A stretch of DNA of 64,000 bases from an uncultured Chloroflexia bacterium. Its GTDB lineage: Bacteria > Chloroflexota > Dehalococcoidia > DSTF01 > JALHUB01. The stretch is from the NCBI GenBank assembly GCA_963703345.1, contig OY969814.1, positions 1,888,001 to 1,952,000 on the forward strand, in the 5' to 3' direction. Shown here one piece after another: positions 13,787 through 35,519 of this stretch (the stretch's first letter is position 1; each line of letters begins with the position of its first letter). A program made the translations under genes and the position numbers. The notes under the pieces are model-generated. The model was given only the letters and a program-made list of their open reading frames with translations. It searched no databases and had not been told where the DNA came from.

Positions 13787-13836
13787 CCCCCCGGTTCGTC
13801 GGCCGAACGGACCAACAGTCGGCAGGGAGACAACGG

Positions 13837-16567: not shown

Positions 16568-16596
16568 CCTGTCAAGCCAGGTTGTCCTGGTAGAAA

Positions 16597-16624
16597 AAAG
16601 CCGGCGGCCTGTGCCGCCGGCTTT
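16597..16624. terminator. Intrinsic terminator hairpin
   Basis: aaagccggcggc-ctgt-gccgccggcttt with A/T tracts on both sides. Confidence 0.75.
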
Positions 16625-16684
16625 ATTGAAAGACAAGACCGCCATCGTGGCCGGGGGTGGCTTGCCTGGGCATCCCGGACCACT

Positions 16685-16851
16685 TAGAATCCTCTCGTCA
16701 GATGCCACGCGGGCAAGGCCGCGGGATTCGGCCTCGTTGAGCACCATCTGACCCTTCCCCAAGATTCGGCGGGCAGCGCTGAGTGCGGGCCGAACGGCTC
16801 GCGGACTTTTAATCCGGGAGTCGAGGGTTCGAATCCCTCACGGCCCTCCCA
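16685..16851 (+). repeat. Lys-type repeat 1: ~115-bp arm + tRNA-Lys(TTT) 3' half
   Basis: cggaCTTTTAAtccgggagtcgagggTTCGAATccctcacggccctcc; arm shared with 20762 and 22627. Confidence 0.85.
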
Positions 16852-17044
16852 GCCGTCGCAGCCGTCGCATTCGTCGTCATCGTCAAGCGCGCGTGCGCCG
16901 ACCGGGGAATGCCTCTCAAGTTCGGCCAGCCCGTTCACGCGAGCATCCCCACACGATAGCCAGAACCGACCCTGAGACCCAGCCTCCGCACTCATGCGCG
17001 GTCGATTGGCCTCAAATCTGCGCGGTTCGCGGCCTACCCGGGCG

Positions 17045-20000
17045 CTACGCGGCCCGCCGTCTTCTAACGTACCAGAGACCAGCACCGACAGTGATCGCGC
17101 CTACTGCTCCCGCAGCCATTTCCGCCCAAGGGACGTAATCGGTTGCCGAAGAAGGTTCTGTTGCTTCAGGCGACCCCGGCGCTATATCCGGTGGCTCCGC
17201 AATCCCCCCGACAGCGCCGGAAACGCGCACGGGTGTGGGGGTAGGCGTCGGGGTGGGTGTTGGCACTGAGCCTGCACAAGTCCGCTGGTACCGTCCGGAA
17301 ACGAACTGCAGATCCTTGATGTCGATGTCATAGTCACCGGTCGCCGGCTCAAGGTCAAACCAGATGTTGTACGGCCACTGGCCAAGGCTCGAGCCGTAGC
17401 GCCCGGACCCCGCTTGCTCGTCTATCACGTTGACCTGGCAATCCTTGTTTACGTCGCCTTCCAGCGCCCGCACAAGAATGGTCGACCCGCTGACCTGATC
17501 GATGAGAATGGGATTCCGCAGCACGTCGCTCAGTTCCGCGCCACTCTGGGTGACGTTGGTCAGCATCCCGTTGCCCAACGTCGGCCGAATCGTCACAGTG
17601 GGTGTAAGCGTCAGATAGGCGAGCACGCCCGGCCCTGTGGGCCCCGGCTGACTACCCGTGGATGTGCAAGCTATACTAAGCGAGCTCTCCGTCTGGTCCT
17701 GCCGGCATTGCGTCTGGCGCCCGGTGCTGGCCAGGAACGGGCCTTCGCTCGCGCTAGCGCTGACGACATTCCTATCGTAATAGACTGTGAATTCAAAGCC
17801 ACCGACCTGAGTGCCCGCCGGCACGTTGGCGACCTCATCGGCCAACACGAGCTTCCCTTCACCGTCATGCGTGCAATCTGTCGGGCCCCCGCTGCACTGC
17901 CACAAGTTTGCGCTGCTCGGACTTATCGACAGAACGATTGGGTCCGCCGCCGTCGCAGCGGAAGGAGTCTGGACACGGGCGGCCAAGACAAGCCATAAGC
18001 CGAACACGCCCGTGACAGTGAGAGCGAATGCCGCCGGTATGCGAACCCGCCCCCTTCGCCTGACGACGGCGCCGCTGAGCGCGGCGCGACAACCGCGGAG
18101 CAGTTGTCTGAATCCCCGTTCCGCGCGCATCATCGCGTCCTTCGCAAGAACGATTTCATTCGAACCAGCGCCTCTTGGCTGTTTCGGAGCGCGCCCCTTA
18201 ATCCGTTTCTTGCTTCTCTTACGCCCGGTCGGACGCACCAGAAGTCCGGCCATTCCCGTTAGCAACACGGCAACGGCTGCGTATCGGGGCGCCACCTTCG
18301 ACGCGGGGGGAACCGACCCTGTGGCGGATACGGAAACTGATCCCCCTGCAGCCTTAGCGCTGATAGTGTTGCCGAAAGGATCGGCGAGCGCGTACGCGGG
18401 GAGGTCGAGCGAGCTTGTCCCCAGCGCCAGCGCTCGGAAAGTGATCTCCGCCAGAAGGCCGGTTCCGCTGGCGCCCGGCGCGCTACCGCTGCTTACGCAA
18501 CCGAAGCGGACCTGCCTATCGCTCACCGTCGGGGTTGGGCAGAACACGCCACGTCTGGTGCTGCCGAGAAAAGTCCCATTGCTTATGCCCGAGAGTATCA
18601 GGATATTCGGGTCGAATTGGACCGTAAAGTCGTATGCGGCGACGTTCGAGACGTCACGCGCCATCACGTCCACCACGAAGTAGTCGCCCACCCTCACGGA
18701 CTGTGAGGGCGGATCGATCAGGACAGCCGGAACATTAGGAGCGAGTGTTGGCGTCGGAGTAGGCGGCTCGTTGCCGGCCGTCGCCGTGCTCGTCGGCGTT
18801 TGACTGGGCCCGGGCGTGTACGTCTCCGTCGGAAGAGGCGTGTCCGTCGGCGTCGGCGCCGGTCCAATCGTTACGGACGCCTGTCCACCGATGCTGACCG
18901 CAATGGTTCCTGCCATTGGATTGGTCAGAATGGCCTTCTCTACGGTGACCTGCGTGTCTCCAGTCTGGAGCGGGACGAAAGTGAGAATGGACAGGACGCC
19001 GCTGCCGCTTGCCCCTGCCGGTTCGGGCCCGAGCGTGAGGCAGACCGTACGTACTTTGGTGCCAAAGATATCCGGGGGCAGACAGCTTGGACCCCGGCCG
19101 CTGCTACCCAGGAAAGGACCGTTCTTCACGCTTGCGACCTGGAGAAACGCTGGATCGAAGTCGAGCGTCAACTCATATGCTCCAAGGTCTGTTACGCCGT
19201 CCACCGTGGCATTGACGCTAAACGGAACGCTTACATTTGCTTGCTGCCAAGCCGGCGCCACGCTGATCGTGACCGCGCCGCCCACCGGTGTGTTAGTCGG
19301 CGTTGGCGCGGCCGGCCCCGGCGTCCAGGTTGCCCTTGGCGTGAGTGTCGCCGTCGGCGTTGGGCTCGGCCCGACCGTGAAAGTCGCCGTGGGCGGGACC
19401 GTCTCCGTCGCCGTTGGTGTATCGGTCGGTGTAGGCGACGGCCCGTAAGTCGGCGTCGGCGCCGGCTGGACAACGACCGATGCGCCGAGGAGCGCATCCG
19501 TCGGAATGACAGTGGCCTGAATGTCTGTCAGGACGAAGTCGCTCAGATTCATCAGGCCGATGCCTTCGCGGATGGCGGAAAAAGTGATTGTCGCAAGCAC
19601 GCCGTTGCCGTCGGGACCGGGAGGATGCGTGCCCAACGTGCGACAGACAAGCCGCACCGAGTTGCCCGTCGGACTCGGAGTCGCAGCGTCACAGCTCACA
19701 CTGCGCCCCGTGCTCCCGAGGAAAGGGCCGTACTTAGCGCCGACGAACGAAGCGATAACCGGATCGAACTGAATGCTTGCCTGGAAGGCGCCAAGATCGG
19801 CCACGTTGTTGACCATAAGGTCGATGCTAAAATCGCTGCCGTTAAACGCCGTCTGCCCCGCCGGACGAAGGCAAGCGACCACGCCCGCAGGTGCGCCTTC
19901 GCACGTCGGGCCCGGCGTTGGCGACGGCGTGGGCACGACAGGGGTTGACGTCGGCCGCGGCGTCGGAAAGCCGATAGTGACTTGCCCATTTTCCGCCACC

Positions 20001-20509
20001 ACCGGTATGTCATTGGCCAAGGGATCGCTCAGAAAGGTGGGATCGATGAAATCCAGAGGGCTCACTCCTTCGACGAGAGCGTTGAAAGTCATCGTCGCGA
20101 CCTCACCAGAGCCGTCAACGCCAACTAGCCCATCGAACGAATAACAACCGAATGTCACTTTCCCCAGGGTCGTGTTCACGATAGCGTTGGGACATTCCAC
20201 GGTTCGTCCGCTGCTTCCCAGGAACGGTCCCTCCGTTGCCGTCTGGAAGGCAACCAGGCTCGGGTCAAACTGGAGGGTGAACTCGAAAGAGCCCAGGTTG
20301 GAGACATCGTCCAGCATCACATTGACGCTGAACGAATCCCCTGCGCTCACGTTTTGAGTAGACGGGTCGAGGCGGACGACGGCCTGTTGGGCGGAAACGA
20401 AGCTGAAGTGGTAAGCCAGGAACAGGGCGCCTGCCATCAGCGCCACGCCGAGAAGAATGCCGCGCCATGCCTTCATAACTAATATTACGGGTGCCACCGC
20501 CGGGGCCAC
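17045..20509 (-). CDS. Multi-cohesin surface protein with PT linkers, dockerin-like domain and C-terminal anchor
   Basis: Five repeats of the type LGxF(E/Q)..L.FDP...GPFLGS(S/T)GR; GDVNKDCQVNVID; VGGIAEPP-TM-RRRR tail. Start may be ATG 20476. Confidence 0.85.
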   Translation of the reverse strand: MAPAVAPVILVMKAWRGILLGVALMAGALFLAYHFSFVSAQQAVVRLDPSTQNVSAGDSFSVNVMLDDVSNLGSFEFTLQFDPSLVAFQTATEGPFLGSSGRTVECPNAIVNTTLGKVTFGCYSFDGLVGVDGSGEVATMTFNALVEGVSPLDFIDPTFLSDPLANDIPVVAENGQVTIGFPTPRPTSTPVVPTPSPTPGPTCEGAPAGVVACLRPAGQTAFNGSDFSIDLMVNNVADLGAFQASIQFDPVIASFVGAKYGPFLGSTGRSVSCDAATPSPTGNSVRLVCRTLGTHPPGPDGNGVLATITFSAIREGIGLMNLSDFVLTDIQATVIPTDALLGASVVVQPAPTPTYGPSPTPTDTPTATETVPPTATFTVGPSPTPTATLTPRATWTPGPAAPTPTNTPVGGAVTISVAPAWQQANVSVPFSVNATVDGVTDLGAYELTLDFDPAFLQVASVKNGPFLGSSGRGPSCLPPDIFGTKVRTVCLTLGPEPAGASGSGVLSILTFVPLQTGDTQVTVEKAILTNPMAGTIAVSIGGQASVTIGPAPTPTDTPLPTETYTPGPSQTPTSTATAGNEPPTPTPTLAPNVPAVLIDPPSQSVRVGDYFVVDVMARDVSNVAAYDFTVQFDPNILILSGISNGTFLGSTRRGVFCPTPTVSDRQVRFGCVSSGSAPGASGTGLLAEITFRALALGTSSLDLPAYALADPFGNTISAKAAGGSVSVSATGSVPPASKVAPRYAAVAVLLTGMAGLLVRPTGRKRSKKRIKGRAPKQPRGAGSNEIVLAKDAMMRAERGFRQLLRGCRAALSGAVVRRRGRVRIPAAFALTVTGVFGLWLVLAARVQTPSAATAADPIVLSISPSSANLWQCSGGPTDCTHDGEGKLVLADEVANVPAGTQVGGFEFTVYYDRNVVSASASEGPFLASTGRQTQCRQDQTESSLSIACTSTGSQPGPTGPGVLAYLTLTPTVTIRPTLGNGMLTNVTQSGAELSDVLRNPILIDQVSGSTILVRALEGDVNKDCQVNVIDEQAGSGRYGSSLGQWPYNIWFDLEPATGDYDIDIKDLQFVSGRYQRTCAGSVPTPTPTPTPTPVRVSGAVGGIAEPPDIAPGSPEATEPSSATDYVPWAEMAAGAVGAITVGAGLWYVRRRRAA

Positions 20510-20551
20510 CTTCTTCCGTATAGAGTCCTGCCGCCGCTCCTCGCTAGAGAG

Positions 20552-20690
20552 AAAAGCAAAGAAGCCAACCAGCGATGCGCTGGTCGGCTTCCCTTCCGGC
20601 TTGTCTGGAGACGCTTCTCCGGGCCCGTGCCGACAGCCCAGCCACCATGGCTGTCGCAGCCCCTTCTCGCGACTATTCGTCCATGCCCAT
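20552..20690 (-). promoter_or_regulatory. Structured 5' leader with intrinsic terminator upstream of the cohesin gene
   Basis: Hairpin gaagccgaccagcg-cat-cgctggttggcttc + TTTGCTTTT on the minus strand, preceded by further hairpins. Confidence 0.55.
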
Positions 20691-20761
20691 AGGGGAGAGG
20701 AGCAGTCGCGCAGTTCTATACTGTCAGCAGCAGGATTGTCTTGTCAAGACCCCTCTAGGCC

Positions 20762-20871
20762 CACCATCTGACCCTCCCCCAAGATTCGGTGAGCAGCGCC
20801 CGAGTGCGGGCCGAACGGCTCGCGGACTTTTAATCCGGGAGTCGAGGGTTCGAATCCCTCACGGCCCTCCA
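20762..20871 (+). repeat. Lys-type repeat 2: arm + tRNA-Lys 3' half ending in CCA
   Basis: Near-identical to 16742-16851. Confidence 0.87.
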
Positions 20872-21074
20872 GACGGCTTTTTTCAGATTCGATTTCCGCT
20901 CTCAAGGGCTGCTTGTTCTTCGCCTAACCCATGATTTGTCGCCTCGGCCAACCCAACCTGACCACCGGACTTGAAGTTTATGAGCCTAAAGACTGAGAGC
21001 CCTTGGCATTCGAGAGCTCTCCCGCAGATACGATTGCCGCGTCTGCAGGCCCCCTCCTCTTCGCCCGCCTCTCC

Positions 21075-21134
21075 CGGTTGAGCACCGGATTCCAAGTCCG
21101 GGAGTCGAGGGTTCGAACCCCTCACGGCCCTCCA
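21075..21134 (+). repeat. Lys-type repeat 3: degenerate tRNA fragment (loop mutated, no arm)
   Basis: cggttgagcaccggattccaagtccgggagtcgagggttcgaacccctcacggccctcca. Confidence 0.75.
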
Positions 21135-21263
21135 GAGCCCTCTTTCAGATTCGAAATCCGCCTTTCGCCCTGAAAGGCTTTCCGTGCACACAGCGGAGTT
21201 TTGGTGTAGCATCTCGGCATCGTCCGTCTGTGGGTCGTACCACTAGTTCGACAGGGGGTCAAC

Positions 21264-22595
21264 ATGCCATCGAGAAGAAAGCTCTGCCGGATGGCGCTGA
21301 GCGTGACATTCATCGCCATCGTCTTTTCGCTCACGGCCTGTGGCGGGAACGGGTCGTCCAAGCCGAGCGCGGAAGGGACGCCTGACACGACGGGTGTTAC
21401 CGACACCGAGATAACCCTAGGTACCCACTACCCCCTCAGCGGCAACCCGGCCGCCGCCTACGCAGTCATCGCCTACGGAATGAAGGCATTCTTCAACTAT
21501 ATCAATGCTCAGGGCGGCGTCTATGGCCGAAAGATCAACTTTATCATCGCCGATGACCACTACAACCCCCCTGACACGGTCGAGGTCGTCCACCAGCTCG
21601 TGGAGCAGGACCACGTCTTTGGCATCATCAGCGGTCTGGGCGAAGAGACGCACCTGGCTGTCTACAAGTACCTGGAGGAACGGGGCATTCCGGACATGTA
21701 TCTCTCCACCGGCCTCGTAGCGTGGTCTGACCCCGTTGCGCACAGCCGGTTCGCCGGAAACCCGAACTACATCATTGATGGCACTTTCCTCGGCAATTAC
21801 ATTGCAAAGACCTACCCCAATGGTAAGCTGGGCATCCTTGAGCAAAACGACGCGTTGGGCCAGGAAGGGGAAAAGGGGCTGCGGCAGGGGCTGGAAGGCA
21901 GCAACGTTGAGATTGCGGATGTGGAGAAGTATGAAGCGAGCGCTAACGACGTCTCTGCCCAGACCCAGCGGCTGAAAGCCAGCGGTGTGGATGTGCTGGC
22001 TGCGTTTGCGATGCCGGGCCAGGGCGCCAGCCTCGTGAAGACGGCGCACGAAACGCTGAACTGGAAGGTTCCTATCGCAGTAAGCGCAATCGATGTGAGC
22101 GATATTTTCATTCTGCTGGCCGGTGCTCAGAATGCGGAGGGCGTAGTAAGCGACACCTTCGGCATGCAGGTATACGACACTGAAGATCCGGGCATCCAGA
22201 AATACATGAAGATATGGGACAAGTTCCACAACGGCGTCACCGGGCCCCTGACGGACCTAGAGGAGTATGGCATGTCCAGGGCGGAGGACGTGGTATGGGA
22301 CCTCGAGATGGCCGGGAAGGACCTCTCGCGCCAGTCCTTCCTTGACGCCGCCGAAAAGATGTGCCGCGTGGACTGCTCCGTGTGCGCTCCTTGGAGCCTT
22401 GAATCCACCAGCCCGACGGACCACAAGGTATCCGAGACGCTGATCCTCAACACAGTGGTGAACGGCAAGTGGCAGACATCGGGCGACCCAGTTAGCTATG
22501 AGTCGACGAAAGAGTGCACACCGGCGACACCTCCTGACGGCTTTGATCAACAGCCGAAGCTGGGGAAGGACGCGGCCTACGTGGAGACTCCTTAG
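21264..22595 (+). CDS. ABC transporter substrate-binding lipoprotein (branched-chain amino acid type), orphan
   Basis: Lipobox LTAC; GVTDTEITLG, INAQGGVYGRKI, DDHYNP. Confidence 0.9.
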   Translation: MPSRRKLCRMALSVTFIAIVFSLTACGGNGSSKPSAEGTPDTTGVTDTEITLGTHYPLSGNPAAAYAVIAYGMKAFFNYINAQGGVYGRKINFIIADDHYNPPDTVEVVHQLVEQDHVFGIISGLGEETHLAVYKYLEERGIPDMYLSTGLVAWSDPVAHSRFAGNPNYIIDGTFLGNYIAKTYPNGKLGILEQNDALGQEGEKGLRQGLEGSNVEIADVEKYEASANDVSAQTQRLKASGVDVLAAFAMPGQGASLVKTAHETLNWKVPIAVSAIDVSDIFILLAGAQNAEGVVSDTFGMQVYDTEDPGIQKYMKIWDKFHNGVTGPLTDLEEYGMSRAEDVVWDLEMAGKDLSRQSFLDAAEKMCRVDCSVCAPWSLESTSPTDHKVSETLILNTVVNGKWQTSGDPVSYESTKECTPATPPDGFDQQPKLGKDAAYVETP

Positions 22596-22626
22596 AGGCT
22601 CTAGGCTCGACAATGAGGGGGCGAGC

Positions 22627-22759
22627 TAGAATCCGGTCGTCAGGTGCCACGCGGGCAAGACGGCGGGATTCGACCTCGCAGAGCGCCATCTGACCCTTCC
22701 CACAGATTCGGCGAGCGGTGCCGGATACGGGCCGAACGGTGAACGGACTTTTAATCCGG
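22627..22759 (+). repeat. Lys-type repeat 4: arm + anticodon stem-loop only
   Basis: Aligns with 16685-16817 and ends at cggacttttaatccgg. Confidence 0.8.
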
Positions 22760-23026
22760 CCGTCAGAGAGCGAATAAGTGATCATGCCCTTTCAACGCAC
22801 ACCATGCGTGCATCGTGTGCGGCGTTCGTGGGAACTGGTTGCCTTACCAAGCAGAGGGCCGCGGCCTCGAGTCCCCGTTTCCCGCTCGAAGTTCTCCTTT
22901 CCGGTCACACCCCTTCGGCGGCCGCGTACGGCTGGGCCAGAGGCGCACTTGGGCAGCCTGAGCGGTGGAGTCGGCTGGGGGTCTCGCCGGCCTGCGGTCG
23001 TCGGGAGCTAATAGGAACCTGTCCTC

Positions 23027-23054
23027 TTGACATCGTTAGCAAACGCAGTAATAT
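23027..23054 (+). promoter_or_regulatory. Sigma70-type promoter TTGACA-16-TAATAT
   Basis: Directly upstream of ATG 23084; the -10 lies inside the small inverted repeat acgca..tgcgt. Confidence 0.5.
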
Positions 23055-23083
23055 TGCGTCATCCGGAGCTACGGGTGGCTACG

Positions 23084-26000
23084 ATGGCACACGAGATCCC
23101 TGAAGGCACCGTCACCGTCCTCTTCACCGACGTGGAAGGCTCCACCGATCTGACGACCCGCCGCGGTGACGAGGCCGCACAGGCGATACTGCGCACCCAG
23201 CGGGAGTTGGTGCGTCAGCAGGTCGAGGAGCACTGCGGCCACGAGGTCAAGTCCCTGGGCGATGGCTTCATGGTAGCTTTCGCCTCGGCGCGAAAGGCTG
23301 TGGCCTGCGCCGTCGGCATCCAGCGGGCCCTGGAGGAGCACAACCGACAGCATCCTGACCAGCAGGTACAGGTGCGGATCGGCCTGAACACGGGGGAGGC
23401 GATCCGAGAGGAGGCGGACCTGTTCGGCGAGGCGGTAAACGCCGCTGCCCGCATCGCTGCCAAGGCTAAGGGCGGCCAGATCCTGCTCTCTGAAGCCGTG
23501 CGGGCCGTCCTGGGCCGGGCCAGAGACGTTGAGCTCGTCGATTGCGGCCGCTTTCGCCTCAAGGGTTTCCCCGAACGCTGGCATCTCTACGAAGCCATCT
23601 GGCAGAAGGCGGAGGGGCCCATTGCGGTCCTGCCGGCTGTTGCGGAGCGAACGCCCTTCGTGGGCCGGGAGAGCGAGCGGGCCGAGCTGCGGCGCCTCCT
23701 CGACCAGACCGTCCGCGGCCAGGGCGCCCTGGTCATGATCGGCGGCGAGCCCGGCGTCGGCAAGACGCGACTAGCTGAAGAGTTCCTGCTGGAGACCGGC
23801 CAGCGTGGCGTGCTGGCCCTGACCGGCCACTGCTACGAGATGGCAGGGGCATCGCCCTATATTCCCTTCGTGGAGATACTGGAGACCGCGGCCCGCGTGA
23901 TCCCGGCGGTTGCTTTGCGTGACGCCCTGGGCGACTCCGCGCCGGAGGTGGCCAAGCTCGCGCCGGAGCTCCGCCGTTTCTTCCCCGACATCCCGCCGCC
24001 TCTGGAGCTGCCACCGGAGCAGGAGCGCCGCTACCTGTTCAACCGCGTGCTCGAGTTCCTGCAGCGGACGGCCCAGAGACAGCCCCTTCTCCTGATGCTA
24101 GATGACCTGCACTGGGGTGACGACTCGACCCTGCTGCTCCTCCAGCACATCACCCAGCGTCTCCATGAGATGCCTGTCCTCATCGTGGGGACTTATCGAG
24201 ACGTGGAGCTGGACGTGAGTAAGCCGCTAGGTGCGGCCCTGCGGGAACTGACGCGCCAGCGCTTAGCTCATCATCTGGCCCTCAAGCGGCTGCCTGAGGC
24301 AGACGTGGAGGCGATGCTGCGGGGCCTTAGCGGCCAGGAGCCGCCGAGCTTCCTTGCGCAGGAGGTCTACCGCGAGACGGAGGGCAACCCTTTCTTCGTC
24401 GAGGAGGTGTTCCAGCATCTGACGGAGGAGGGGAAGCTGTTCGACCAACAGGGCCGCTGGCGCTCCGACCTCCGCATCGGCGAGCTGGAGGTGCCGCGCA
24501 GCGTCCGCCTGGTCGTCGGCCAGCGACTGGAGCGCGTCTGCGAGGACTGCCGCCGCGTCCTGACCGTCGCCGCAGTCGTCGGCCGCGGCTTCAGCTTCGA
24601 ACTGCTGGAGGCGCTGGGCGACGTAGATGCCGACGCCCTCCTGGACGCCATCGACGAAGCGGAGCGGGCGCATCTCATCACCTCCACCGCCGACGGCCCT
24701 GAGGCCCGCTTCACCTTTGCCCACGAGCTCATCCGCCAGACGCTGGTCAGCAGCCTCTCCCTGCCCCGCCGGCAGCGGTGGCACCTGCGGGTGGCCGAGG
24801 CCATGGAGCGGCTCTACGCCCGCGCCCTGGAGGAGCACGGTGCCGAGCTGGCCCACCACCTCTACCAGGCGGGGGCCGCCGCCGACCCCGAGAAGACTGT
24901 GCGCTACCTGGCGGTGGCCGGCGACCAGGCCATGAAGGCAGCGGCGTTCGAGGACGCCCTGCGCCACTACGAGAACGCCCTCTCCCTGCACCCGGCCGAT
25001 GACCGGCAGGGGCGGGCTGACCTGCTGCACAAGCGGGGGCAGGCTCTCCGCAGCCTGGGTCGCTGGGAGGAGGCGCTGGCCGACTGGCGGCAGGCGCTGG
25101 CCGCCTACGAGGAGCTGGGCGACGCCCAGGCGGCGGGCCGCATCTGCCAGGGGTTATCCGCGCTGCTGGCCTATGCAGCCCGCTGGGACGAAGCGGTGGA
25201 GCTCGCCCGCCGCGGCCTTGGCGCGCGGGGCCAACAGGTGAGCGTCGACCGCTGCCGCCTCCTCGCCCAGACCGGGACCCACCTCAGCCTCTCCGGAGAC
25301 CACGACACCGGCGCACCCTTGCTCACCGAGGCGCTCGCCATGGCCGAGGAGTTGGGTGACCGGCGCCTGCTGGGATTGGTCCTCTTCGGCAAGGGGATGG
25401 TTCACTACTGGTACCTGCAGCCGCGGGAGGCGGTCGAGTCCGGCCTGCGGGCGGCCGAGCTCTTGCGCTCGGCCGGCAGCCTCTGGAGTCTGGCCGAAGT
25501 GCTGTGGGTCACGCAGCACGCCCTGCTGTTGCTCGGCCGCTATGACGAAGCCGCAAAGATGGGCGAGGAGGCGGAGCCCCTGGCGGAGCGCCTGGGCCAC
25601 CTGTTCGCCCTTGTGTTGACCAGGCGCGCTAGCGGCGGCGTAGATCTCCAGCTGACGGGCGACATCAACAGGTTCGAGGAGTTTGTGAAGGCGGACCTGG
25701 AGCTCTGCCGCAGAACCGGCTACCCCGGGATATCCAACTCCTACACCTGGCTTGGCATGGCGCATTTCTGGAGGGGAGAGTGGGGGCAGGCGCTGGAGAG
25801 CTTGGAGGAGGGCGTTAGGCTGGAGCCCCCGGGCCCGTTGGCTGGCTTGGCCTGGGCCGACCTGTTCCTCGGTAAGGCGTACGTTGGGGACGGGGATTCA
25901 GCTCTCGCCATGCTGGACGACAGGATGTCCTGCCTCCCCCACCCCAGCCGGGCCAATACGCTCGGCACCTGGGTGATGCTGTTCGCGGCGGTCGAAGGGC

Positions 26001-26377: not shown

Positions 26378-26416
26378 TTCGTGGGGGCGCTCTCGATAGT
26401 GTAGGATGGGGTCGCC

Positions 26417-27760: not shown

Positions 27761-28084
27761 CGCTCACCGCTGCGCCCTTCAACACACACGATCCGGACAT
27801 GGTGTCGGCCCGAGACGGCACGTCCTCTGCGCGCTGCCCCGGCTCGCTTTCGGCAATCAAACGATCACGTGTCTAGGAGAGTCGTGGGGAGAGGAACGGG
27901 AATGAGGCCCTGGACCGCCCGGGGGGCCAGTCCACCTGCTTGTCACCCGATGACTCTCCGCCGTCATCCCCATTGGACTCGTTGCGGGGCTGGTGTTTGC
28001 CCTGACAGCGCGATATCATGCTGGCGGCGCTAAGAGCGCTTGCTGTCGCCGACCCCTTTGCTCGTGTCCAAAGGAGGCCCCATT

Positions 28085-28246
28085 GTGGAAGTGCTGCCAA
28101 CCCAATTGCTGCCTGCCGTACCCCACATCCAGTTCTCCATCTTCAACCTTGCAATTCCGAACATTGCCGCATGGGTAGCGCTTATCTTTGCCTTCGGCGC
28201 CGCGGCTTGGCTGCGCCTCCCGCGAATCTTCGAGCCCCGAGAGTGA
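28085..28246 (+). CDS. Small membrane protein
   Basis: RBS AAGGAGG, GTG start, one hydrophobic helix; first gene of the cytochrome b unit. Confidence 0.6.
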   Translation: MEVLPTQLLPAVPHIQFSIFNLAIPNIAAWVALIFAFGAAAWLRLPRIFEPRE

Positions 28247-28253
28247 GACAGGG

Positions 28254-28886
28254 ATGAGTATGAACTTGACTCGGTCCGCGCAACGCTTCCTGACCGGCAA
28301 CCTCACCCTTGAGGACGCTTTGCCCACGAGGATGCCGGTGTACGTCAGTTCAGTCGCCTACCTCTTCGGCGTGACGGCGCTTTCCGCCATAGCAGTGCTG
28401 GTCGTTACGGGCCTGGCAATGAGCCTGTTCGGGCCAGAATGGTACCACGGTGGACAGGCGCCGGGATCAGGGGTGGGCCGCTTCGTCAACTCGATTCACT
28501 TCTGGAGCGCGCAACTCCTTTTCTTTGCGCTCATCGCCCACGTGGCGACCAAGTATGCGATGGCCGCCTGGCGGGACGGTCGCTGGAAGACATGGACCGT
28601 GGGCGCGCTGGCCCTAGGGGCTGCGATCTTCACCGCCCTCACAGGGTTTCTTGCCCAGACAAACTGGGACTCGCAGTGGATCGCCGTTCAAGCCAAGGAT
28701 GCTTTGAACGCAGTGGGCATTGGCGCGTTTTTCAACACGTTGAACCTAGGCCAGGTCTTAACCCTACACGTTGTCGCCTTGCCGCTCTTGCTCGCATTGT
28801 TGGTCGGAATCCACCTCTTCTTTATCCGTCGAGACGGCCCGGTAAAGCCGATCGACGCGAGGCCGCAAGATGAGCAATCGAACTGA
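28254..28886 (+). CDS. Cytochrome b/b6 N-terminal domain protein
   Basis: Four heme-ligand His (SIHFWS...AHV; TLHV...IHL) in transmembrane helices. Confidence 0.88.
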   Translation: MSMNLTRSAQRFLTGNLTLEDALPTRMPVYVSSVAYLFGVTALSAIAVLVVTGLAMSLFGPEWYHGGQAPGSGVGRFVNSIHFWSAQLLFFALIAHVATKYAMAAWRDGRWKTWTVGALALGAAIFTALTGFLAQTNWDSQWIAVQAKDALNAVGIGAFFNTLNLGQVLTLHVVALPLLLALLVGIHLFFIRRDGPVKPIDARPQDEQSN

Positions 28887-29853
28887 AGAGTACCTCAAAG
28901 ACATCCCGATGAAGCCCTACGACTTGCTGCGGGAAGGGTTCATCGTCCTTGTCCTGGCCACGGTAATAGTTGTGATTCTGGCTGCCGTATTTCGATCGCC
29001 CGACTATCCGACGGTGCGCGGCGAGGACGTGGCGAATCTCGAACCGATCGCCTTCTTGCAGACCAGCGCCGATATTCTCGCTGGAAACCACGGTATTCAG
29101 GATTACGGGCCGCCATACACCTCCGACAGCGAGAACGCGCAAAGCCTATTCGGCGTGGCGCCAGCAAACTGGTTTGGGGCCACGATTCCCGTTGATCCGA
29201 CGAAAGACCTCGTGCTCGGCCCCTTGCAGCGGGTGGCGATCCTTAACAGTGACGTTGCCAGCGCGCTGCAAGAGTACCAGGCGGTCAGCCCTGACCAGCA
29301 GCAAACGTGGGTCACGACGTATCTTGACGGTCTGGATCAGGCGACGGAGACGAACGGCGAAGTGAACATCCCTGCCGGCGACTATGGGCCCGTCCCCACA
29401 ATGATGAACGGGATGCTTGCCCTGGGGCGGGCCGGCCTGCTGGAGGGGGCCATAGAGAGCGGCAACCAGTTGCCCTACTCCCTCAACAACACGAAGTCCC
29501 TGCTGTTTTTCCAAGATGACGTCGATGCCAGCGTCGCCGAAACACTGGACATGAAAGGCGATCAGTGGGGCGTCAGCAATGAAACGGGCCGGTTCCCCGG
29601 AGCCTGGTGGCTTTGGCCCTATTCTTTCCTCTACCAGATTCGTCCCATGTCCTCTTCGCCCAATGCCGACCTCGAGGCGATGGGGATTGCGGCCGCTGCT
29701 TTCCTGCTGCTCGTTCTGCTTCCGTTCATCCCGATCATCCGCTGGCTGCCTCGGTACCTGGGCATCCACAGGCTGATCTGGCGCGATTGGTACCGCCGGC
29801 GCGACAACCGGAGACCGAAGGCCAACGGGCCTCGAGGCACCATCAACGCCTAG
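28870..29853 (+). CDS. Membrane protein partnered with cytochrome b (subunit IV-like)
   Basis: Overlaps cytochrome b; YDLLRE N-terminus, PGAWWLWPY, LLPFIP. Confidence 0.65.
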   Translation: MSNRTEEYLKDIPMKPYDLLREGFIVLVLATVIVVILAAVFRSPDYPTVRGEDVANLEPIAFLQTSADILAGNHGIQDYGPPYTSDSENAQSLFGVAPANWFGATIPVDPTKDLVLGPLQRVAILNSDVASALQEYQAVSPDQQQTWVTTYLDGLDQATETNGEVNIPAGDYGPVPTMMNGMLALGRAGLLEGAIESGNQLPYSLNNTKSLLFFQDDVDASVAETLDMKGDQWGVSNETGRFPGAWWLWPYSFLYQIRPMSSSPNADLEAMGIAAAAFLLLVLLPFIPIIRWLPRYLGIHRLIWRDWYRRRDNRRPKANGPRGTINA

Positions 29854-30054
29854 GCGGCGCGGTGGCCGCCCGGCCTGAGCAACGGGGTATCGGTCAGCAA
29901 GGCCTTGCCGGGACCGCACACTATTCGTCCATCGTGATGGTGACGGGCGCCCGTCGTGCACCAGCAACCGAACAAGCGATCCTCACGCCTCATTCGTCGG
30001 TTGGTGCGGTAGGCGGGGCGACGTCAACTAAGCTCAGCGCGGAAGGAGGCCGCC

Positions 30055-31275
30055 ATGCAGACCACTGATGTCTTCCTAACAGACCAGGACCGGCTCGTCC
30101 GTTCGGTAATGCGAGACTTTGTCGAACGGGAGGTCATGCCGGTCCGCCAGCAGATCGACGACGACAAGGACCACGTGGTTGTGCGCCGCCTACTCCAGGG
30201 ACTCTTCGGACTCGGCCTGATGCGCGCGGGCCTGCCCCAGGAATACGGAGGGATGGCGGCTGGCGGCGGCGGCGCGAGCAATGTCACCACCTGCCTTGTG
30301 CTGGAGGAGATATCGAGGGGTGATTGCGGCATCGCCGTTGCGGCCAGCGTAACCACCTGGGCCCTGATACCGGCGATAAGGGCGGGCAACGAGACCGTCC
30401 TGAAGCTGATGGGCGAGATGTTCGGCGGAAGTGAGCTCCGGCTGGGCTGCTTCGCCATGACCGAGCCCGCCAGTGGCTGCGACATCGAGAACCTGGCGGC
30501 ACTGCACGGCCGCCCGATTCAGACCAGGGCGGTCTTGGACGGGGATGAATGGGTCATCAACGGGGGGAAGCGCTTCCCCAGCAACGCCGGCGTCGCCGAC
30601 ATCTATTGCACTGTCTGCCAGACAGATCCCGACCTCGGCGAAGAGGGCATCGCTCTTATCTACGTACCCTCGCCGTGGGAGGGGCTGTCCTTCGGCAAGT
30701 TCGAGAGCAAGGCAGGGATGCAGGCAGACCGCAATTGCGACATCTACTTCGACAACGTGCGAGTTCCAAGGCGGTACCGCGCCGCCGGCCCGGGTGAAGA
30801 TGCCCGCCTCATGAAGCGAAACCTGACACTCGGGCGCGGCGCCAGCGCGGCGATGGCTGTGGGCAACGCCCGCGGCGCCTTCGACCGCGTCCTCGACTAC
30901 ACTGGGTCGCGAGTGGTCGAGGGACGTCCGATCCGTCAGCATTCAATGTGCGCCGGCATGCTTGCCGATATGGCGATCGGGATCGAGACGGCGCGGGCGT
31001 ACTATTTGCAGACCGCCTACATGCTCGACCGTCCGGAAGAATACGGGCAGCCGGACTCCGACGAGATGCTGTCAAGGGCCAGCCTGGCTAAGGTCCACGC
31101 CTGCGATGTCGCCGTAATGGTGGCGAACCGCGCTATGGAGTTGATGGGCTCGTATGGCTACATGCGCGAGTTCGACCTAGAGAAATACTGGCGCGACGGC
31201 AAGGAGATCCAGTTGTGGCTGGGCGGCGCGCAACTCGCCAGGCTGGATGTCGCGCGGGGCTATTACGAGCCCTAG
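30055..31275 (+). CDS. Acyl-CoA dehydrogenase
   Basis: FAMTEPASGCD, WVINGGKRF, MGSYGY..E..LEKYWRD. Confidence 0.93.
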   Translation: MQTTDVFLTDQDRLVRSVMRDFVEREVMPVRQQIDDDKDHVVVRRLLQGLFGLGLMRAGLPQEYGGMAAGGGGASNVTTCLVLEEISRGDCGIAVAASVTTWALIPAIRAGNETVLKLMGEMFGGSELRLGCFAMTEPASGCDIENLAALHGRPIQTRAVLDGDEWVINGGKRFPSNAGVADIYCTVCQTDPDLGEEGIALIYVPSPWEGLSFGKFESKAGMQADRNCDIYFDNVRVPRRYRAAGPGEDARLMKRNLTLGRGASAAMAVGNARGAFDRVLDYTGSRVVEGRPIRQHSMCAGMLADMAIGIETARAYYLQTAYMLDRPEEYGQPDSDEMLSRASLAKVHACDVAVMVANRAMELMGSYGYMREFDLEKYWRDGKEIQLWLGGAQLARLDVARGYYEP

Positions 31276-31361
31276 CTGGCCCGCCTCGCTTAGCAGACAC
31301 TAAGGGAAGATTGTGTTGGGCCGGCGCTCCCTTTGGGTTCTCTATATTCCTCCAACAAGCT

Positions 31362-31411
31362 TCTGATTTACACCCAGAAGGGCGCAGGTTCGAGCCCTGC
31401 ATCGCCCACCA
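31362..31411 (+). repeat. Val-type repeat 1: tRNA-Val(TAC) 3' half
   Basis: TTTACACccagaagggcgcaggTTCGAGccctgcatcgcccACCA. Confidence 0.85.
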
Positions 31412-31492
31412 GAACCCCTTCGGAATAGCCAGAAGGTTCGCGGGGCCTCATCATGAGGCCCCGCTGTCGTTTCGCCTGAGCGCCTCTTGCGG

Positions 31493-32215
31493 CTAAGGCG
31501 TTGGGGTGACGGTCGGCGTAGCTGTCTTCGTGGGCGTTGGCGTGCTCTCGATGTTGAAGTCGTTTGGACCAATGACGACGGGCGCGGTCACGTCCGAGCT
31601 ATGAATCGCATCGAACCAGAGCTCATACTGGTCAATGTCGCCAACATCGATGGCGCTCGTGTCAACGGAGACGTCGAACGTCCCTGTATCGTTATCATCG
31701 ATGTCTTCCGGCGTCGTGCTGAAGTCGTGGCCAACTGCTATTACGTTGCCGTCGTTGTCAAACAGCGCGGCGCAGACGTGGACGTTCTCCAGGTCTTGGT
31801 TGGCGTCGATGGAACCCGTGATATGCGTCTCGTCTTCATTGGCAGTCGTAGTGATGACGATGTTGTCTTCGTCGACGTCAAGATCTGCGACGCTCTTGTG
31901 ACCGAAGGTGAGCGCCCTGACAGTCTCTTTCGTCGTCCTCGCGTTTATCGAAGACGGCGCAGTTGCCTCAACTGGCGAATCCATCCCCTTCTGCAGAGTG
32001 CGGGTGCAGGGACTCACATTCTTGGAGTGGACGATGGTGCCGGAGCTGTTCAGGAAGTCCACCTGAACGGATGCTGCGACCACATCCACGTTCGAGAGGT
32101 TGGTCGCTAGACCAACAAAGTGGTTCGTGTCCCTGTCGAACGTCCCGAAGCGGACGAAGCAACCGGCGGCGAGGATTCCTGTTACCGCGAGGGCGAGGAC
32201 CAATAGACGCTTCAT
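31493..32215 (-). CDS. Lipoprotein with FxLYD-like domains
   Basis: MKRLL...LAAGC lipobox with RBS AGGAGG; AALFDNDGNVI. Confidence 0.75.
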   Translation of the reverse strand: MKRLLVLALAVTGILAAGCFVRFGTFDRDTNHFVGLATNLSNVDVVAASVQVDFLNSSGTIVHSKNVSPCTRTLQKGMDSPVEATAPSSINARTTKETVRALTFGHKSVADLDVDEDNIVITTTANEDETHITGSIDANQDLENVHVCAALFDNDGNVIAVGHDFSTTPEDIDDNDTGTFDVSVDTSAIDVGDIDQYELWFDAIHSSDVTAPVVIGPNDFNIESTPTPTKTATPTVTPTP

Positions 32216-32415
32216 TCTTGCCTCCTTTCGACACTTCAACGGATCGCCAAAGCTCGGCGGTCTACATTGATGATAACGCGCGCCGGAGAGGAAAGTTAAC
32301 CGGATTTCGACATTTCTTAAGCCGCAATAGCAACCTGCAACGGGCCGCCCCAAAAAGTAAGGCAGGCCGCTAGAGGCGCACTCGGCAGAGCTCGCTACCC
32401 AACCACGGTTGAACG

Positions 32416-32605
32416 CCAGCTTCCCACTTATGAAGCCATTACACAGAGCTTCCCCTAGGACTAGTCGCAGTTGCGGCTAATGGCCCATTTTCCAGATGAT
32501 AACTTCCGCGTTTTCGCTCGGGGGTGCTGAATCTGTTGCACAGCGCTCAGGCTCAGATGCTTTACACCCAGAAGGTCGCAGGTTCGAGCCCTGCATCGCC
32601 CACCA
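32416..32605 (+). repeat. Val-type repeat 2: ~145-bp arm + tRNA-Val 3' half
   Basis: Aligns over its length with 33721-33910. Confidence 0.88.
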
Positions 32606-32909
32606 AAACCGCTGCCGAGCGGCGCTTCTCGCCCTGGCTAATCACAAGAATGTTTGGCGCCACCCTTGACAGGCTGTTGACGTAGGAGTAGTTTGTCAGC
32701 GCACAGACGAAGGGACCGCCGGTGATTGCTCCACCGACGGCCCCAGTTGCCGAGCCCTGACGCCGCCAGGGTCGACCTGCTCACTCTAGCATGGTGGGCC
32801 CCGACCGCGGAAGGGTTGGGGCCTTCTGTTTGGAGGCGGAGCACAGAGAATGGAGCCCAGCGGAAGTGCTTCGATAGCCAGGGCAAAGTAGGAAACAAGG
32901 AGGTTCCCC

Positions 32910-33233
32910 ATGCCACATTACATGGTTCAGGCGGCCTACTCCCAGGCGGCAACGGCCGCGATGGTGAAGAACCCACAGGACCGGGCCGAGGGGCTGCGCC
33001 CGGTAATCGAGCGGCTTGGAGGCAAACTCCTCTCTCTGTACTTCGCTTTCGGTGAATACGATGTCGTGGGAGTGGCGGAGATGCCAGACAACGTTTCCTC
33101 CGCCGCCTTCTCGATAGCCATCTCCGCAGGCGGGGCAGTTAGGGCAGTAAAGACGACGCCTCTAATGACCGTGCAGGAAAGCATCGAGGCTATGCGGAAA
33201 GCGGGTCAAGCTGCTTATCGCCCGCCAGCCTAG
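32910..33233 (+). CDS. GYD domain protein
   Basis: LGGKL...YFAFGEYD motif; RBS AAGGAGG. Confidence 0.88.
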   Translation: MPHYMVQAAYSQAATAAMVKNPQDRAEGLRPVIERLGGKLLSLYFAFGEYDVVGVAEMPDNVSSAAFSIAISAGGAVRAVKTTPLMTVQESIEAMRKAGQAAYRPPA

Positions 33234-33298
33234 GCGAGTCCTTTCGCCGAAGCCAGCTTCGGCGGTGGTCCCCAGAGCACACAAGGAGGGAACAGCAC

Positions 33299-33598
33299 AT
33301 GTTATGCGTGGCTATCGGGACGCCAGTACGCGGCCTGACTAGGCAGCAGGCACAGGAGTACACAACACTGTTCCGGCAGTGGGCACCCCCTCCCGGATAT
33401 GACATGAAGACGCTGTACTGGGGCTCAGATGGCAGTGTCGTTGTCATAGCCGAAATCACGACATCAGCCGCCAACTACGAGGCGGGGCTGCCTTGGACGA
33501 ACATGGAGTGGAAGCTCATACCGGTTGTCGAGGGAGCCCAAGCGGTGCAAATGCAAGACAAGGTTACTGCCTGGGCGCAGAAGATTCTGGGGAGCTAG
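33299..33598 (+). CDS. Hypothetical protein (DUF3303-like)
   Basis: RBS AGGAGG; W.PPPG...PW..IPVVE pattern. Confidence 0.65.
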   Translation: MLCVAIGTPVRGLTRQQAQEYTTLFRQWAPPPGYDMKTLYWGSDGSVVVIAEITTSAANYEAGLPWTNMEWKLIPVVEGAQAVQMQDKVTAWAQKILGS

Positions 33599-33720
33599 GG
33601 ACAAGTTCCTGTATTGCGGGGGCCGCCGCCGCGCTCTGGGGGCCGGTTCCTTCGGGCCGGCCCCCGACAGCGGGTGATAGGCGTCGCCTATAGCCTACGG
33701 TCTCAGGCGGTTTCCTAAGA

Positions 33721-33910
33721 CCAGCTTCCTGATTATGAAGCTATTGCGCAGAGCTTTCACTGGGATCAGTCGCACTCGCCCCTGATGGCCCATTTTTCAG
33801 ATGATAGCTTCCGCGTTTTCGCTCAGGGATGCTGATTTTGTTGCACAGCGCTCAGGCCTGGCTGCTTTACACCCAGAAGGCTGCAGGTTCGAGCCCTGCA
33901 TCGCCCACCA
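33721..33910 (+). repeat. Val-type repeat 3: arm + tRNA-Val 3' half
   Basis: Aligns with 32416-32605 and ends in CCA. Confidence 0.88.
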
Positions 33911-34063
33911 TAGCCCTCAAGCACATTCGCTTTCCGCGTTTTCTGTCACTGACGTCGCAACGTCGTTAACCAATCGCCCCGCCATGCGTTATCAATAACG
34001 TCGCACATCCTCCTCACGCTCGCATCGGAACCAGCGCCATGATTCGATAAGAGGCGAAACACG

Positions 34064-35230
34064 ATGTATAGGCTTCTGCTCCTAGGCGTTGTTCTTGGAT
34101 GCCTGCCATTGTCTTCCACAGCTACTCAGGCCAGCGCCAATACGTTCATTCAGGTCAGCGCCGGCGCCTATCACACCTGCGCAGTAAGGACGGACAGTAC
34201 ACTGGCCTGCTGGGGAAGCAACTACGACTATCACGGGCTTTGGATCGGGCAGGCGACGCCACCCACCGGCACCTTCAGCCAAGTCAGCGCTGGCGGTTAT
34301 CACACTTGCGGCGTAAGGACGGACGGTACCCTTGCCTGCTGGGGCGACAACAACTATCAAGAGGCGACGCCACCCAGCGGCACCTTCAGCCAGGTCAGCG
34401 CGGGCTTCCAATATACGTGCGGCGTCAGGACGGACGGCAGGCTAGCGTGCTGGGGAGCCCCTTCCGAGGACTACGGGCAAGTGACACCACCAAGCGGCAC
34501 TTTCGGCCAGGTCAGTGCGGGCGGCTTTAGCACGTGCGGGCTGAGGACCGACGGCACCGTCGCCTGCTGGGGGAGGAGTGGGGAGGTTGGGACTCCGCCC
34601 TCCGGCACCTTCAGCCAGATCAGTCAGACCAGCACGCGCACTTGCGGCGTGAAGACGGACGGCACGCTGGCCTGCTGGGGCGAGTACGGCCAGCTTGAGA
34701 CGCTACCCGCCGGCACTTTCACGCAGGTCAGCGTGGGAGGCTTTCACACGTGTGGACTGAAGGCCGACGGCACGATCGTTTGCTGGGGAGGAAACTCCCA
34801 GGGCCAGGCGACACCACCCGCCGGAACCTTCAGCCAGGTGAGCGCAGGCGGTTATCACACCTGCGCCGTAAAGACAGACGGTACCATGGCCTGCTGGGGC
34901 AGCAACTACGATGTCAAGGGGATCCGCACGGGGACCCAGTACTTCGGGCAGGCGACACCGCCTACGTCCGAAGCCACCCCAACCACCACGCCGGTGTCAA
35001 CATACGCGCCGACCCCAACCGAGGCCTACTCACCTTCACCGACAGAGACACCCACCCTCACGGGTTCGCCCGAGGCTCCTGGCACAGTGAGCCCCCCGTT
35101 CACAGGAATCGCCCACCGTTCTCGGGCACCGTCGGCGGCCTGGGCGATAGCGATCTGCACAGCAGCCGTTGGTGGCACGATGCTGCTGGCTGGCGGGCTG
35201 TACGCCAGGAGGCGTTGGGGAACCCGGTAA
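34064..35230 (+). CDS. RCC1-repeat surface protein with C-terminal anchor
   Basis: Seven F.QVSAG..HTC...TDGTLACWG repeats; PPFTG + TM + RRR tail. Confidence 0.9.
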   Translation: MYRLLLLGVVLGCLPLSSTATQASANTFIQVSAGAYHTCAVRTDSTLACWGSNYDYHGLWIGQATPPTGTFSQVSAGGYHTCGVRTDGTLACWGDNNYQEATPPSGTFSQVSAGFQYTCGVRTDGRLACWGAPSEDYGQVTPPSGTFGQVSAGGFSTCGLRTDGTVACWGRSGEVGTPPSGTFSQISQTSTRTCGVKTDGTLACWGEYGQLETLPAGTFTQVSVGGFHTCGLKADGTIVCWGGNSQGQATPPAGTFSQVSAGGYHTCAVKTDGTMACWGSNYDVKGIRTGTQYFGQATPPTSEATPTTTPVSTYAPTPTEAYSPSPTETPTLTGSPEAPGTVSPPFTGIAHRSRAPSAAWAIAICTAAVGGTMLLAGGLYARRRWGTR

Positions 35231-35271
35231 GGTTCGCGACAGAAGCCCCAATCAATACCATCAGCCGAGCC

Positions 35272-35381
35272 GCGCAGAATAGGGCACTGGGCACTAATCG
35301 CAATCGCGCATATTGGCCCAATTTCCAGATGATAACTTCCGCGTTTTCGCTCGGGGGTCCTGAATCTGATGCACAGCGCTC
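35272..35381 (+). repeat. Val-type repeat 4: arm only, cut just before the tRNA part
   Basis: tggccca.tttccagatgataacttccgcgttttcgctcgggggt.ctgaatctg.tgcacagcgctc matches 32481-32548. Confidence 0.82.
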
Positions 35382-35491
35382 GTTCGAATACCGAGGCGCG
35401 GGCCATTGCCTCAGCGGAGCGGAGCCTGCGGTTTTGGCAACGGGGGACAGACACTAAGTGTGGATGGTGACGGTTCGCCCCCTCTGCTCGC

Positions 35492-35519
35492 TTGACATTC
35501 GCCGCTCCCTGCGTATCAT
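35492..35519 (+). promoter_or_regulatory. Sigma70-type promoter TTGACA-16-TATCAT
   Basis: About 70 bp upstream of the res start. Confidence 0.5.

Follow-up and report, generated by a model that had tools for sequence, protein, structure and literature searches.

What placed unrelated genes between repeated fragments of tRNA-Lys and tRNA-Val in the genome of an uncultured Chloroflexia bacterium? Two rows of such repeats lie in the 64,000-nucleotide stretch analysed here (the window; G000:C1:1888001-1952000), which belongs to a source genome, G000, assembled as a single contig of 2.28 Mb with 95.9% completeness. Sequence comparison suggests, with a probability that we put at roughly two in three (0.66), that the units between the repeats are miniature cis-mobilisable elements (CIMEs) formed by tandem accretion: integration at a tRNA gene would have been followed by loss of the interior, by accretion of further arrivals and by re-mobilisation whenever a cognate integrase visits. 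Each block between repeats is likely to be a deletion remnant of an integrative element that appears to have lost its integrase and kept a usable attachment arm. A preliminary description of the window had instead read the rows as integron-like arrays of cassettes stacked by an integrase acting in trans.

The repeats are attachment-site junctions

All eight positions given in the preliminary description hold repeats in the same orientation (85-100% identity over 60-195 nt), and a BLAST search of the source genome recovers all eight copies with E-values down to 1e-85, far beyond chance. The division into two families of four was incomplete, missing a decayed fifth Lys copy (Lys0) and a half of tRNA-Gly(CCC) (Table 1); owing to Lys0, the nitronate monooxygenase/FabK-like (NMO-like) gene that follows it counts as a further unit. 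The supposedly typical copy, a conserved arm joined to a tRNA 3′ half, is present at full length in only three of the eight (Lys1, Val2 and Val3): Lys2 is shortened, Lys4 and Val4 lack the half, Val1 is armless and Lys3 has another arm. As described before, the window holds no intact tRNA-Lys or tRNA-Val; Lys1 is called as a tRNA by ARAGORN, but it has no D-arm and scores 26.9 bits against an Rfam threshold of 29. The inner end of the LysA arm (window 16787-16847) can pair with the acceptor strand to give a D-armless tRNA-like shape, so it may once have been the 5′ half of a tRNA.

The repeats are attachment-site junctions with crossover in the anticodon loop, as had been supposed. The tRNA identity of the halves begins at tRNA positions 27-33, and junction tables reveal an inverted core around a 7-nt spacer. 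Val1 is the attL-like start of its array and Lys4 is the attR-like end of the other. Both attachment ends are kept by the units Val1-2, Val2-3, Lys1-2 and Lys3-4 and by the native Val units, those at the true tRNA gene; the core of Val3-4 is lost and Lys0-1 is doubtful. The interval 20872-21074 is without a gene, in agreement with the preliminary description, and its gene-less module is found behind native Lys copies too. Lys3 and Lys4 differ in their spacers, and second sites with varied spacers stand behind four native Lys copies; since two of these second sites trail into decayed halves, Lys2-Lys3 may equally be a gene-less unit. Contig joins that run back between the Lys4 and Lys2 arms were also considered and are accounted for by other repeat copies.

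At least 71 nt beside the core are kept in 37 of 54 distinct Val arms, with clusters at 71-74 nt (13 arms) and 101-104 nt (10 arms), as measured without gaps on arms located by their inner 23 nt. Identity is 0.76-0.98 in the first 70 nt and about 0.3 beyond 110 nt; as far as the last motif, the arm is more conserved than the sequence that flanks it. The 71-nt span comprises three motifs that recur, equally spaced, in the arms of Gly-targeting elements entering tRNA-Gly from the other side and, judged by motifs and spacing, the Val arm is homologous to the arms of these members of the same integrase family. Compared with 11 recombinase proteins the arms gave no coherent match (best E 0.019 over 11 aa), and they show no 3-nt periodicity; eight folds were no better than those of shuffles (z +0.96 to -1.34), and no Rfam family matched at gathering score. 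Homology, periodicity, folding and Rfam thus lend no support to the idea that the arms are remnants of integrase genes, or DNA or RNA with a conserved structure.

Many of the tRNA halves in relatives carry, at the same point of the T-stem, a GC-rich palindromic insertion of 15-40 nt that resembles REP-type (repetitive extragenic palindromic) sequences and may inactivate or mark the tRNA fragment.

Native arrays and their units

The true tRNA genes lie outside the window, tRNA-Lys(TTT) at G000:C1 c594828-594902 and tRNA-Val(TAC) at c1259609-1259685, and both head arrays of their own: five arm-plus-half copies in 7 kb for Val and four copies in 26 kb for Lys, with no integrase at either. Fragments of Pro, Gly, SeC and tmRNA genes are also present in the source genome, where a few arm or half copies are dispersed. 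The Val-arm pattern occurs in 10 of 17 genomes of the same family and in 1 of 75 others, and its reversed control in none. Intact genes for tRNA-Val, Ile and Asn are immediately preceded by short duplicates of tRNA 5′ ends (27-28 nt), of which Asn has three in succession.

Statistics were taken from 33 loci picked for holding Val junctions, with orthologous units counted separately (L051 and L104 share one). Between consecutive Val halves lie 51 units, and the 43 that end in an arm have a median length of 1,302 bp and a median of one gene; at most 2.6 kb is the size of 37 of them. None of the 43 holds a whole integrase and three hold fragments; the fragments inside units are N-terminal in L051 and L104 and C-terminal in L099, and a C-terminal fragment of the Lys-integrase family lies in an insert of G002 that ends in a LysA arm. 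Cargo is oriented with the array in 16 of 27 single-gene units and against it in 11, according to our own gene caller, and no common cassette promoter was found across units. In the window, a Pfam scan and homologue search place no integrase between the repeat copies, as stated earlier, and the cargo names given then hold (cohesin, Peripla_BP_6, GYD, DUF3303 and RCC1 by Pfam), the ‘lipoprotein’ being an FxLYD-domain protein by NCBIfam.

Both order and content of the units vary between relatives, and whole units recur at different positions. A DUF3303 unit of 0.84 kb is 96% identical end to end in G003 and G007; in G003 it opens the row next to the tRNA and precedes the USP unit, whereas in G007 it comes after the USP unit. 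The whole hemerythrin unit (1.22 kb) is second in the native row of the source genome and ectopic in G007, where it spans two contigs with an identical overlap of 122 bp and ends exactly at the spacer of a site that is empty at window 48450. A DUF1330 unit (0.6 kb) occurs twice in the source genome, one copy alone at 1026500. Other units are stable: distal ones, for example that with the substrate-binding protein (SBP) gene in the native Val array, stay the same from one genus to the next.

Two cargo genes resemble genes of other lineages. The FxLYD cargo shares 88% identity with the gene beside ileS in G004 but 53% with the one beside ileS in the source genome itself, so another lineage's core gene has become cargo; a weak Val match beside the G004 gene looks like chance. 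The NMO-like gene stands behind tRNA-Lys in seven relatives (G003, G006, G007, G008, G010, G016 and G017), in Lys rows of G002 and G005 that show no intact tRNA, and away from both kinds of place in G014; the window copy is 90-92% identical to copies from two other genera, as against 81-83% to some of its own genus.

LysA arms are also found at ectopic sites. At a tetR site empty alleles exist, with no tRNA-like target in them, and at a site in an ABC operon, variable among the relatives compared, no clean empty allele was found. At two intergenic hotspots, L028 (G000:656195-658416) and L027 (G000:82341-84131), the inserts differ between relatives and several end in LysA arms.

Candidate integrases

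The integrase that the preliminary description would have looked for beside the genuine tRNA genes is found in relatives (L107 for Val, L134 for Lys) and not in the source genome. At L107, one of 14 metagenome loci, an intact tRNA-Val is directly followed by a 302-aa tyrosine integrase and, further on, by a Rep-like (replication-initiator) gene. This integrase is 55.6% identical to the 315-aa tyrosine integrase of Gly-targeting elements, encoded at tRNA-Gly in the source genome (G000:1469173-1470120). Its upstream region matches 27 of the 98 distinct post-CCA stretches behind Val halves (E ≤ 0.001), and the upstream motif is present in 22 of the 98, as against at most 1 in 200 shuffles. Close members of the family number 17 genes in 13 of 93 genomes; 15 of the 17 adjoin an intact tRNA, and their upstream regions bear arm motifs. 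For Lys, a 349-aa tyrosine integrase lies behind tRNA-Lys in G003 (L134/L135), and the stretch is closed by a LysA junction 25 kb further on.

The candidate enzymes match PF00589 and phrog_1, with XerD and XerA as best solved relatives, and to judge by length and alignment they lack an N-terminal arm-binding domain. Read by eye, they contain the residues R-K-H-R-H/W-Y, which we take to be the motif of this class of enzyme. The TIGR02249 model scores six tyrosine recombinases at 36.6-65.6 bits against a cut-off of 265. No close homologue of the Val integrase was found in any of the five array-bearing relatives searched (G003, G006, G007, G008 and G016; best 35%), which indicates that arrays persist without their enzyme. 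The proposal that an integrase acting in trans stacks integrase-less units is borne out as regards the units, but not as regards a resident enzyme, the nearest one in the source genome being that at tRNA-Gly.

The Xer-like recombinase of the window was considered as the Val or LysA enzyme and is ruled out by distance (Table 1). In G002 and G013 (L146, L147 and L139) genes of its family end about 150 bp before Lys halves, which adds one more type of arm at that tRNA. In viral contigs, neither the arm patterns nor the Val integrase were found. Two viral contigs (L078 7037-8075 and L079 2015-3053) carry a tRNA-Gly 5′ half with a 299-aa integrase of the family, as a one-gene insert among head genes.

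Secondary landing sites and the carrier element

Both rows of the window sit inside a 47-kb element integrated in tRNA-Arg, bounded by a 67-bp direct repeat (7149-7215 and 54384-54450). Pfam matches place a prim-pol, two small terminase subunits and a ParB-methylase at one end and a large serine recombinase at the other, and related backbones are present in G014, G002 and G008. The related element of G002 carries a Val half; in the Arg-element stretches fetched from G014 no Val or Lys repeats were found.

The earlier idea that this element offers landing pads holds in so far as it has secondary landing sites, but the clearest of these are palindromic core-only sites of 9 + 7 + 9 nt (pads) and not the tRNA halves themselves. 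The three in the window amount to six strand matches against 0.01 expected. The source genome has 15, all intergenic (two are real tRNAs and one is a tRNA half), compared with 0-2 in codon-block shuffles. They copy the anticodon arm of tRNA-Gly(CCC), and tRNA-Val of some order-level relatives has the same arms. A filled counterpart of the empty site at 48450 is seen in G007, where the spacer and right flank of this site follow a Val arm and the break falls at the spacer's edge.

Hybrid junctions extend this picture. A Val arm is joined to the right half of a pad at G000:978908 and 2124980, and a pad-like left half to a Val half in G006, G007, G002 (twice) and the source genome; in G002 an identical left flank occurs with either spacer. 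Such junctions carry target or donor spacers. The mixture suggests that exchange may proceed without full identity of the overlap; a matching attP variant may also account for it.

Several further observations concern the surroundings of these sites. A PAS-domain sensor gene (window 42999-46959) lies between two palindromic sites with different spacers, in the manner of a dif module, and the same pairing of differing spacers brackets genes at G000:1447459-1448593 and 1304341-1308545. The gene for a 344-aa protein (window 48604-49638) has counterparts of 92-93% identity in G002, G006, G007 and G008, where its neighbours are pads, fragments of Gly or Val and the Xer-like gene; it matches no Pfam, NCBIfam or PHROG family, and its Atlas matches are hypothetical proteins with low recognition. 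A sigma70-like promoter is repeated at window 49677-49708 and 50598-50629, upstream of the Xer-like recombinase; it occurs in four further places in the source genome, one of them just before a pad, and upstream of Val halves in G002. A type III restriction-modification pair (window 35588-41450) follows the damaged Val4 arm within the Arg element.

Table 1. Features of the window and examples from other loci. Positions are those of the window unless a locus or genome is named.
Feature	Position	Strand	Remarks
Carrier element	7149..54499	.	47 kb, integrated in tRNA-Arg(CCG); basis: 67-bp direct repeat, Pfam, related backbones
attR-like end of Arg element	7149..7215	-	tRNA 3′ end and remnant of recombinase C-terminus
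Lys0	15067..15135	+	Decayed tRNA-Lys 3′ half and P′ stump; fifth Lys copy
Cargo, NMO-like gene	15458..16567	+	Sole copy in source genome
Lys1	16685..16850	+	LysA arm 16685-16805, 7-nt spacer 16806-16812, tRNA-Lys 3′ half
Cargo, cohesin-domain protein	17045..20476	-	91% over 2.1 kb to chromosomal paralogue G000:670836-672964
Lys2	20762..20871	+	Inner ~65 nt only of LysA arm, spacer, tRNA-Lys 3′ half
Gene-less module	20872..21089	+	P′ side and second arm type (C); 73% to stretch behind native copy 586678
Lys3	21090..21134	+	Non-tRNA spacer 21090-21096 and tRNA-Lys 3′ half; different ~65-nt arm before
Cargo, ABC substrate-binding protein (Peripla_BP_6)	21264..22595	+	Pfam
Lys4	22627..22759	+	LysA arm, tRNA-type spacer, 5-nt stem, then non-tRNA DNA; tRNA half absent
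tRNA-Gly(CCC) 3′ half, degenerate	22843..22889	+	
Val1	31358..31411	+	attB-like left half-site, spacer 31367-31373, tRNA-Val 3′ half; armless
Cargo, FxLYD-domain protein (‘lipoprotein’)	31493..32215	-	NCBIfam
Val2	32416..32605	+	Val arm to 32560, spacer, tRNA-Val 3′ half
Cargo, GYD and DUF3303 genes	32910..33598	+	Same pair behind a Val half in G006 (83% over 1.1 kb)
Val3	33721..33910	+	Val arm to 33865, spacer, tRNA-Val 3′ half
Cargo, RCC1-repeat protein	34064..35230	+	Pfam
Val4	35285..35381	+	Val arm only, ends 12 nt before core; damaged right end of array
Palindromic core-only site (9 + 7 + 9 nt)	43001..43025	+	Unoccupied
Palindromic core-only site	46933..46957	-	Behind remnant of tRNA-Gly(CCC) 3′ end
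Palindromic core-only site	48450..48474	+	Unoccupied in window; in G007 its spacer and right flank follow a Val arm
Xer-sized tyrosine recombinase of carrier element	50662..51594	+	25-26% to Val and Lys integrases (distant)
Large serine recombinase	52989..54488	+	3′ end overlaps tRNA-Arg on opposite strand
Intact tRNA-Arg(CCG)	54424..54499	-	Target of carrier element
tRNA 5′-end copies	L042 13767-13793; L043 16579-16605; G000:1810855-1811088		
T-stem insertion examples	L041 11832-11898; L044 4722-4789; L045; L046; L126 1399-1471; L140		

Origin of the arrays

A course of events consistent with these observations would begin with an autonomous element, equipped with a short tyrosine integrase and in one case with a rolling-circle Rep, that integrates at a tRNA gene. 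Its interior would be deleted or replaced, leaving a unit of 0.7-2.6 kb with one or two genes, and later arrivals would push the older unit down the row. Circles, composite or single, may then leave and re-insert, either at the tRNA or at secondary sites that resemble it (the Arg element has such sites), and spacer mismatches would probably be tolerated; the visiting integrase may be attached to an autonomous element or come alone, the sequence being compatible with both. Decay is common, as seen from damaged ends (Val4 and Lys0) and from the homology-guided left ends at the tetR site.

Several observations weigh against this miniature-CIME reading. Only one whole Val integrase locus is present among the 14 metagenome loci, and its contig stops before the far arm, so that the pairing of arm and enzyme is inferred from shared motifs. 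The G007 contig ends short of the tRNA, and its swap in order could therefore be a duplication. At the tetR site the left ends follow short promoter homology and not an attachment site. Many junctions are damaged (Val4, Lys0 and Lys2, with the insertions of 15-40 nt in many halves of relatives), and no circle junction was seen in the contigs compared. As for the pads, a reversed-pattern control gave 8 matches against 15 in the source genome and was exceeded in only 3 of 17 relatives, so the case for pads in relatives rests on recurring spacers; the pad spacer occurs in none of the 43 arm-plus-half junctions, and a return from pads into arrays is thus unseen.

A more far-reaching scheme, which we offer as a tentative possibility and hold to be doubtful, is a tRNA-based cassette network in Dehalococcoidia. 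Xer-sized, mismatch-tolerant integrases would take up host genes one by one, each enclosed by a 72-nt arm and half a tRNA, excise them singly and land them at tRNAs or at carrier-borne mimics of the anticodon arm, with carriers ferrying rows between lineages. If true, this would be the integron's job done by unrelated parts.

Alternatively, the rows could be the product of a dedicated integron-like system, in which a resident integrase acting in trans makes cassettes of one gene, cuts them out individually and stacks them, the pads being kept for the purpose. The small and uniform size of the units, the clustered arm lengths, whole-unit changes of order between genomes, the filled and empty pad pair (G007 and window 48450) and the intact member of the integrase family in the source genome would all suit such a system. 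So would the single ectopic units (DUF1330, 0.6 kb, G000:1026500), but another possible origin of these is the insertion of a composite from which the autonomous part later departs. We nevertheless consider this explanation unlikely, given that a close Val integrase is missing from the five relatives named above and any integrase from both native arrays of the source genome, that the integrase scars within units point to decay, and that the units share no promoter and their genes are of mixed orientation.

The units could instead be dead scars, reshuffled by RecA-type recombination between repeats of 120-190 bp with no integrase taking part after the first insertion. The repeats, 85-97% identical, are long enough for this, many junctions are decayed and distal units do not change from genus to genus (the SBP gene in the native Val array, for example); however, joins at pads break exactly at the 7-nt spacer with about 16 nt of similarity, and the arm out to its last motif is more conserved than the sequence around it, which makes this explanation quite improbable.

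That the arms are decayed integrase coding sequence, a miniature inverted-repeat transposable element (MITE) or an RNA, or that the rows are misassembled at tRNA repeats, is very unlikely despite the few dispersed copies in the source genome: the arms show no recombinase match, periodicity, stable fold or Rfam family and mark unit ends, content between them varies, and, while Val3 is spanned by an identical contig from run X1, that run may come from the source sample itself, so that the stronger argument against misassembly is that the copies differ from one another and that the same layout recurs in independent genomes and metagenome contigs.

Arrays of tRNA fragments, usually taken as dead scars, are here tied to candidate enzymes, a minimal arm and a filled and empty target pair. 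The arrays also outline a way for a gene from the chromosomal core of one lineage to turn into portable cargo in another. An integrase of about 300 aa with relaxed spacer needs, if real, would be useful as a tool.

Comparison with known systems

The pdif modules of Acinetobacter are small modules between simple palindromic sites; the pads described here differ in that they copy the anticodon arm of tRNA-Gly(CCC) and not dif. Searches of an open-access library, which do not prove that none is in print, returned no account from this group of tRNA arrays whose one-gene units are bounded by arms and accompanied by pads that mimic the anticodon arm; the supplements of PMC3146451 and of the tycheposon preprint may hold similar small units without an integrase.

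As in integrons and attC-site clusters that have no integron-integrase (CALIN; PMC4889954), small single-gene units stand in a row between related sites, the integrase is not nearby and the order varies. The mechanism proposed in the preliminary description does not follow from this likeness: no attC-like fold was found (eight folds compared with shuffles, using no attC covariance model), the integrases score under the IntI cut-off and none is an IntI, cargo genes are of mixed orientation, the units have promoter-like sequences of their own and the sites are tRNA-derived. IntDOT of CTnDOT is a tyrosine recombinase that tolerates mismatched overlap regions (PMC2817482); here, by contrast, such tolerance is indicated by hybrid junctions only, and the integrases, by length and alignment, lack an N-terminal arm-binding domain.

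Serial integration at tRNA genes that pushes older material outward has been described for the tycheposon islands of Prochlorococcus (bioRxiv 10.1101/2020.12.28.424599) and for additive flexible islands (PMC10872708, PMC5217437). In Prochlorococcus, Methylopumilus and Alteromonas such islands leave partial tRNAs, integrase fragments and cargo, and in Methylopumilus the smallest of those at tRNA-Lys measure 330 bp and hold a single gene (PMC10872708, PMC5217437). Their leftovers, as described there, have no clear boundaries or are marked by tRNA repeats only, whereas each unit here has a conserved arm.

Closer in lineage are the ssrA islands of Dehalococcoides, which belong to the same class, lie in tandem, are marked by fragments of the target gene and in 15 cases are without an integration module (McMurdie et al. 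2011, PMC3146451); the earlier statement that no system of this kind was known in Chloroflexota is contradicted by them. The serine recombinase of the carrier overlaps its attachment site as DsiB does, with ParB and a methylase nearby. The ssrA islands, however, involve a serine recombinase, the 3′ end of ssrA and a 20-bp repeat, in contrast to the tyrosine-type anticodon-loop cores and arms of 70-145 bp found here; the targets are tRNA-Val and tRNA-Lys for the units and tRNA-Arg for the carrier, not ssrA.

The nearest parallel is provided by CIMEs and tandem accretion of the ICESt1/ICESt3 type, in which integration and transfer genes are lost, attL and attR are kept, and the remnants stand in tandem at the target gene and are movable with an incoming element (PMC5704250). 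The units here likewise have no whole integrase, stand in tandem at the target tRNA in the native arrays and have likely parents of the same specificity (L107 and L134). They differ in being mostly of one gene and about 1.3 kb, in recurring whole at different positions, in stemming from two or more families of Xer-sized integrases and at least three types of arm, and in occupying palindromic secondary sites in another element; the arrays of the window are themselves at secondary sites and not at target genes. Accretion of integrase-less islands is a known pattern, and what is new here is its unusually compact form.

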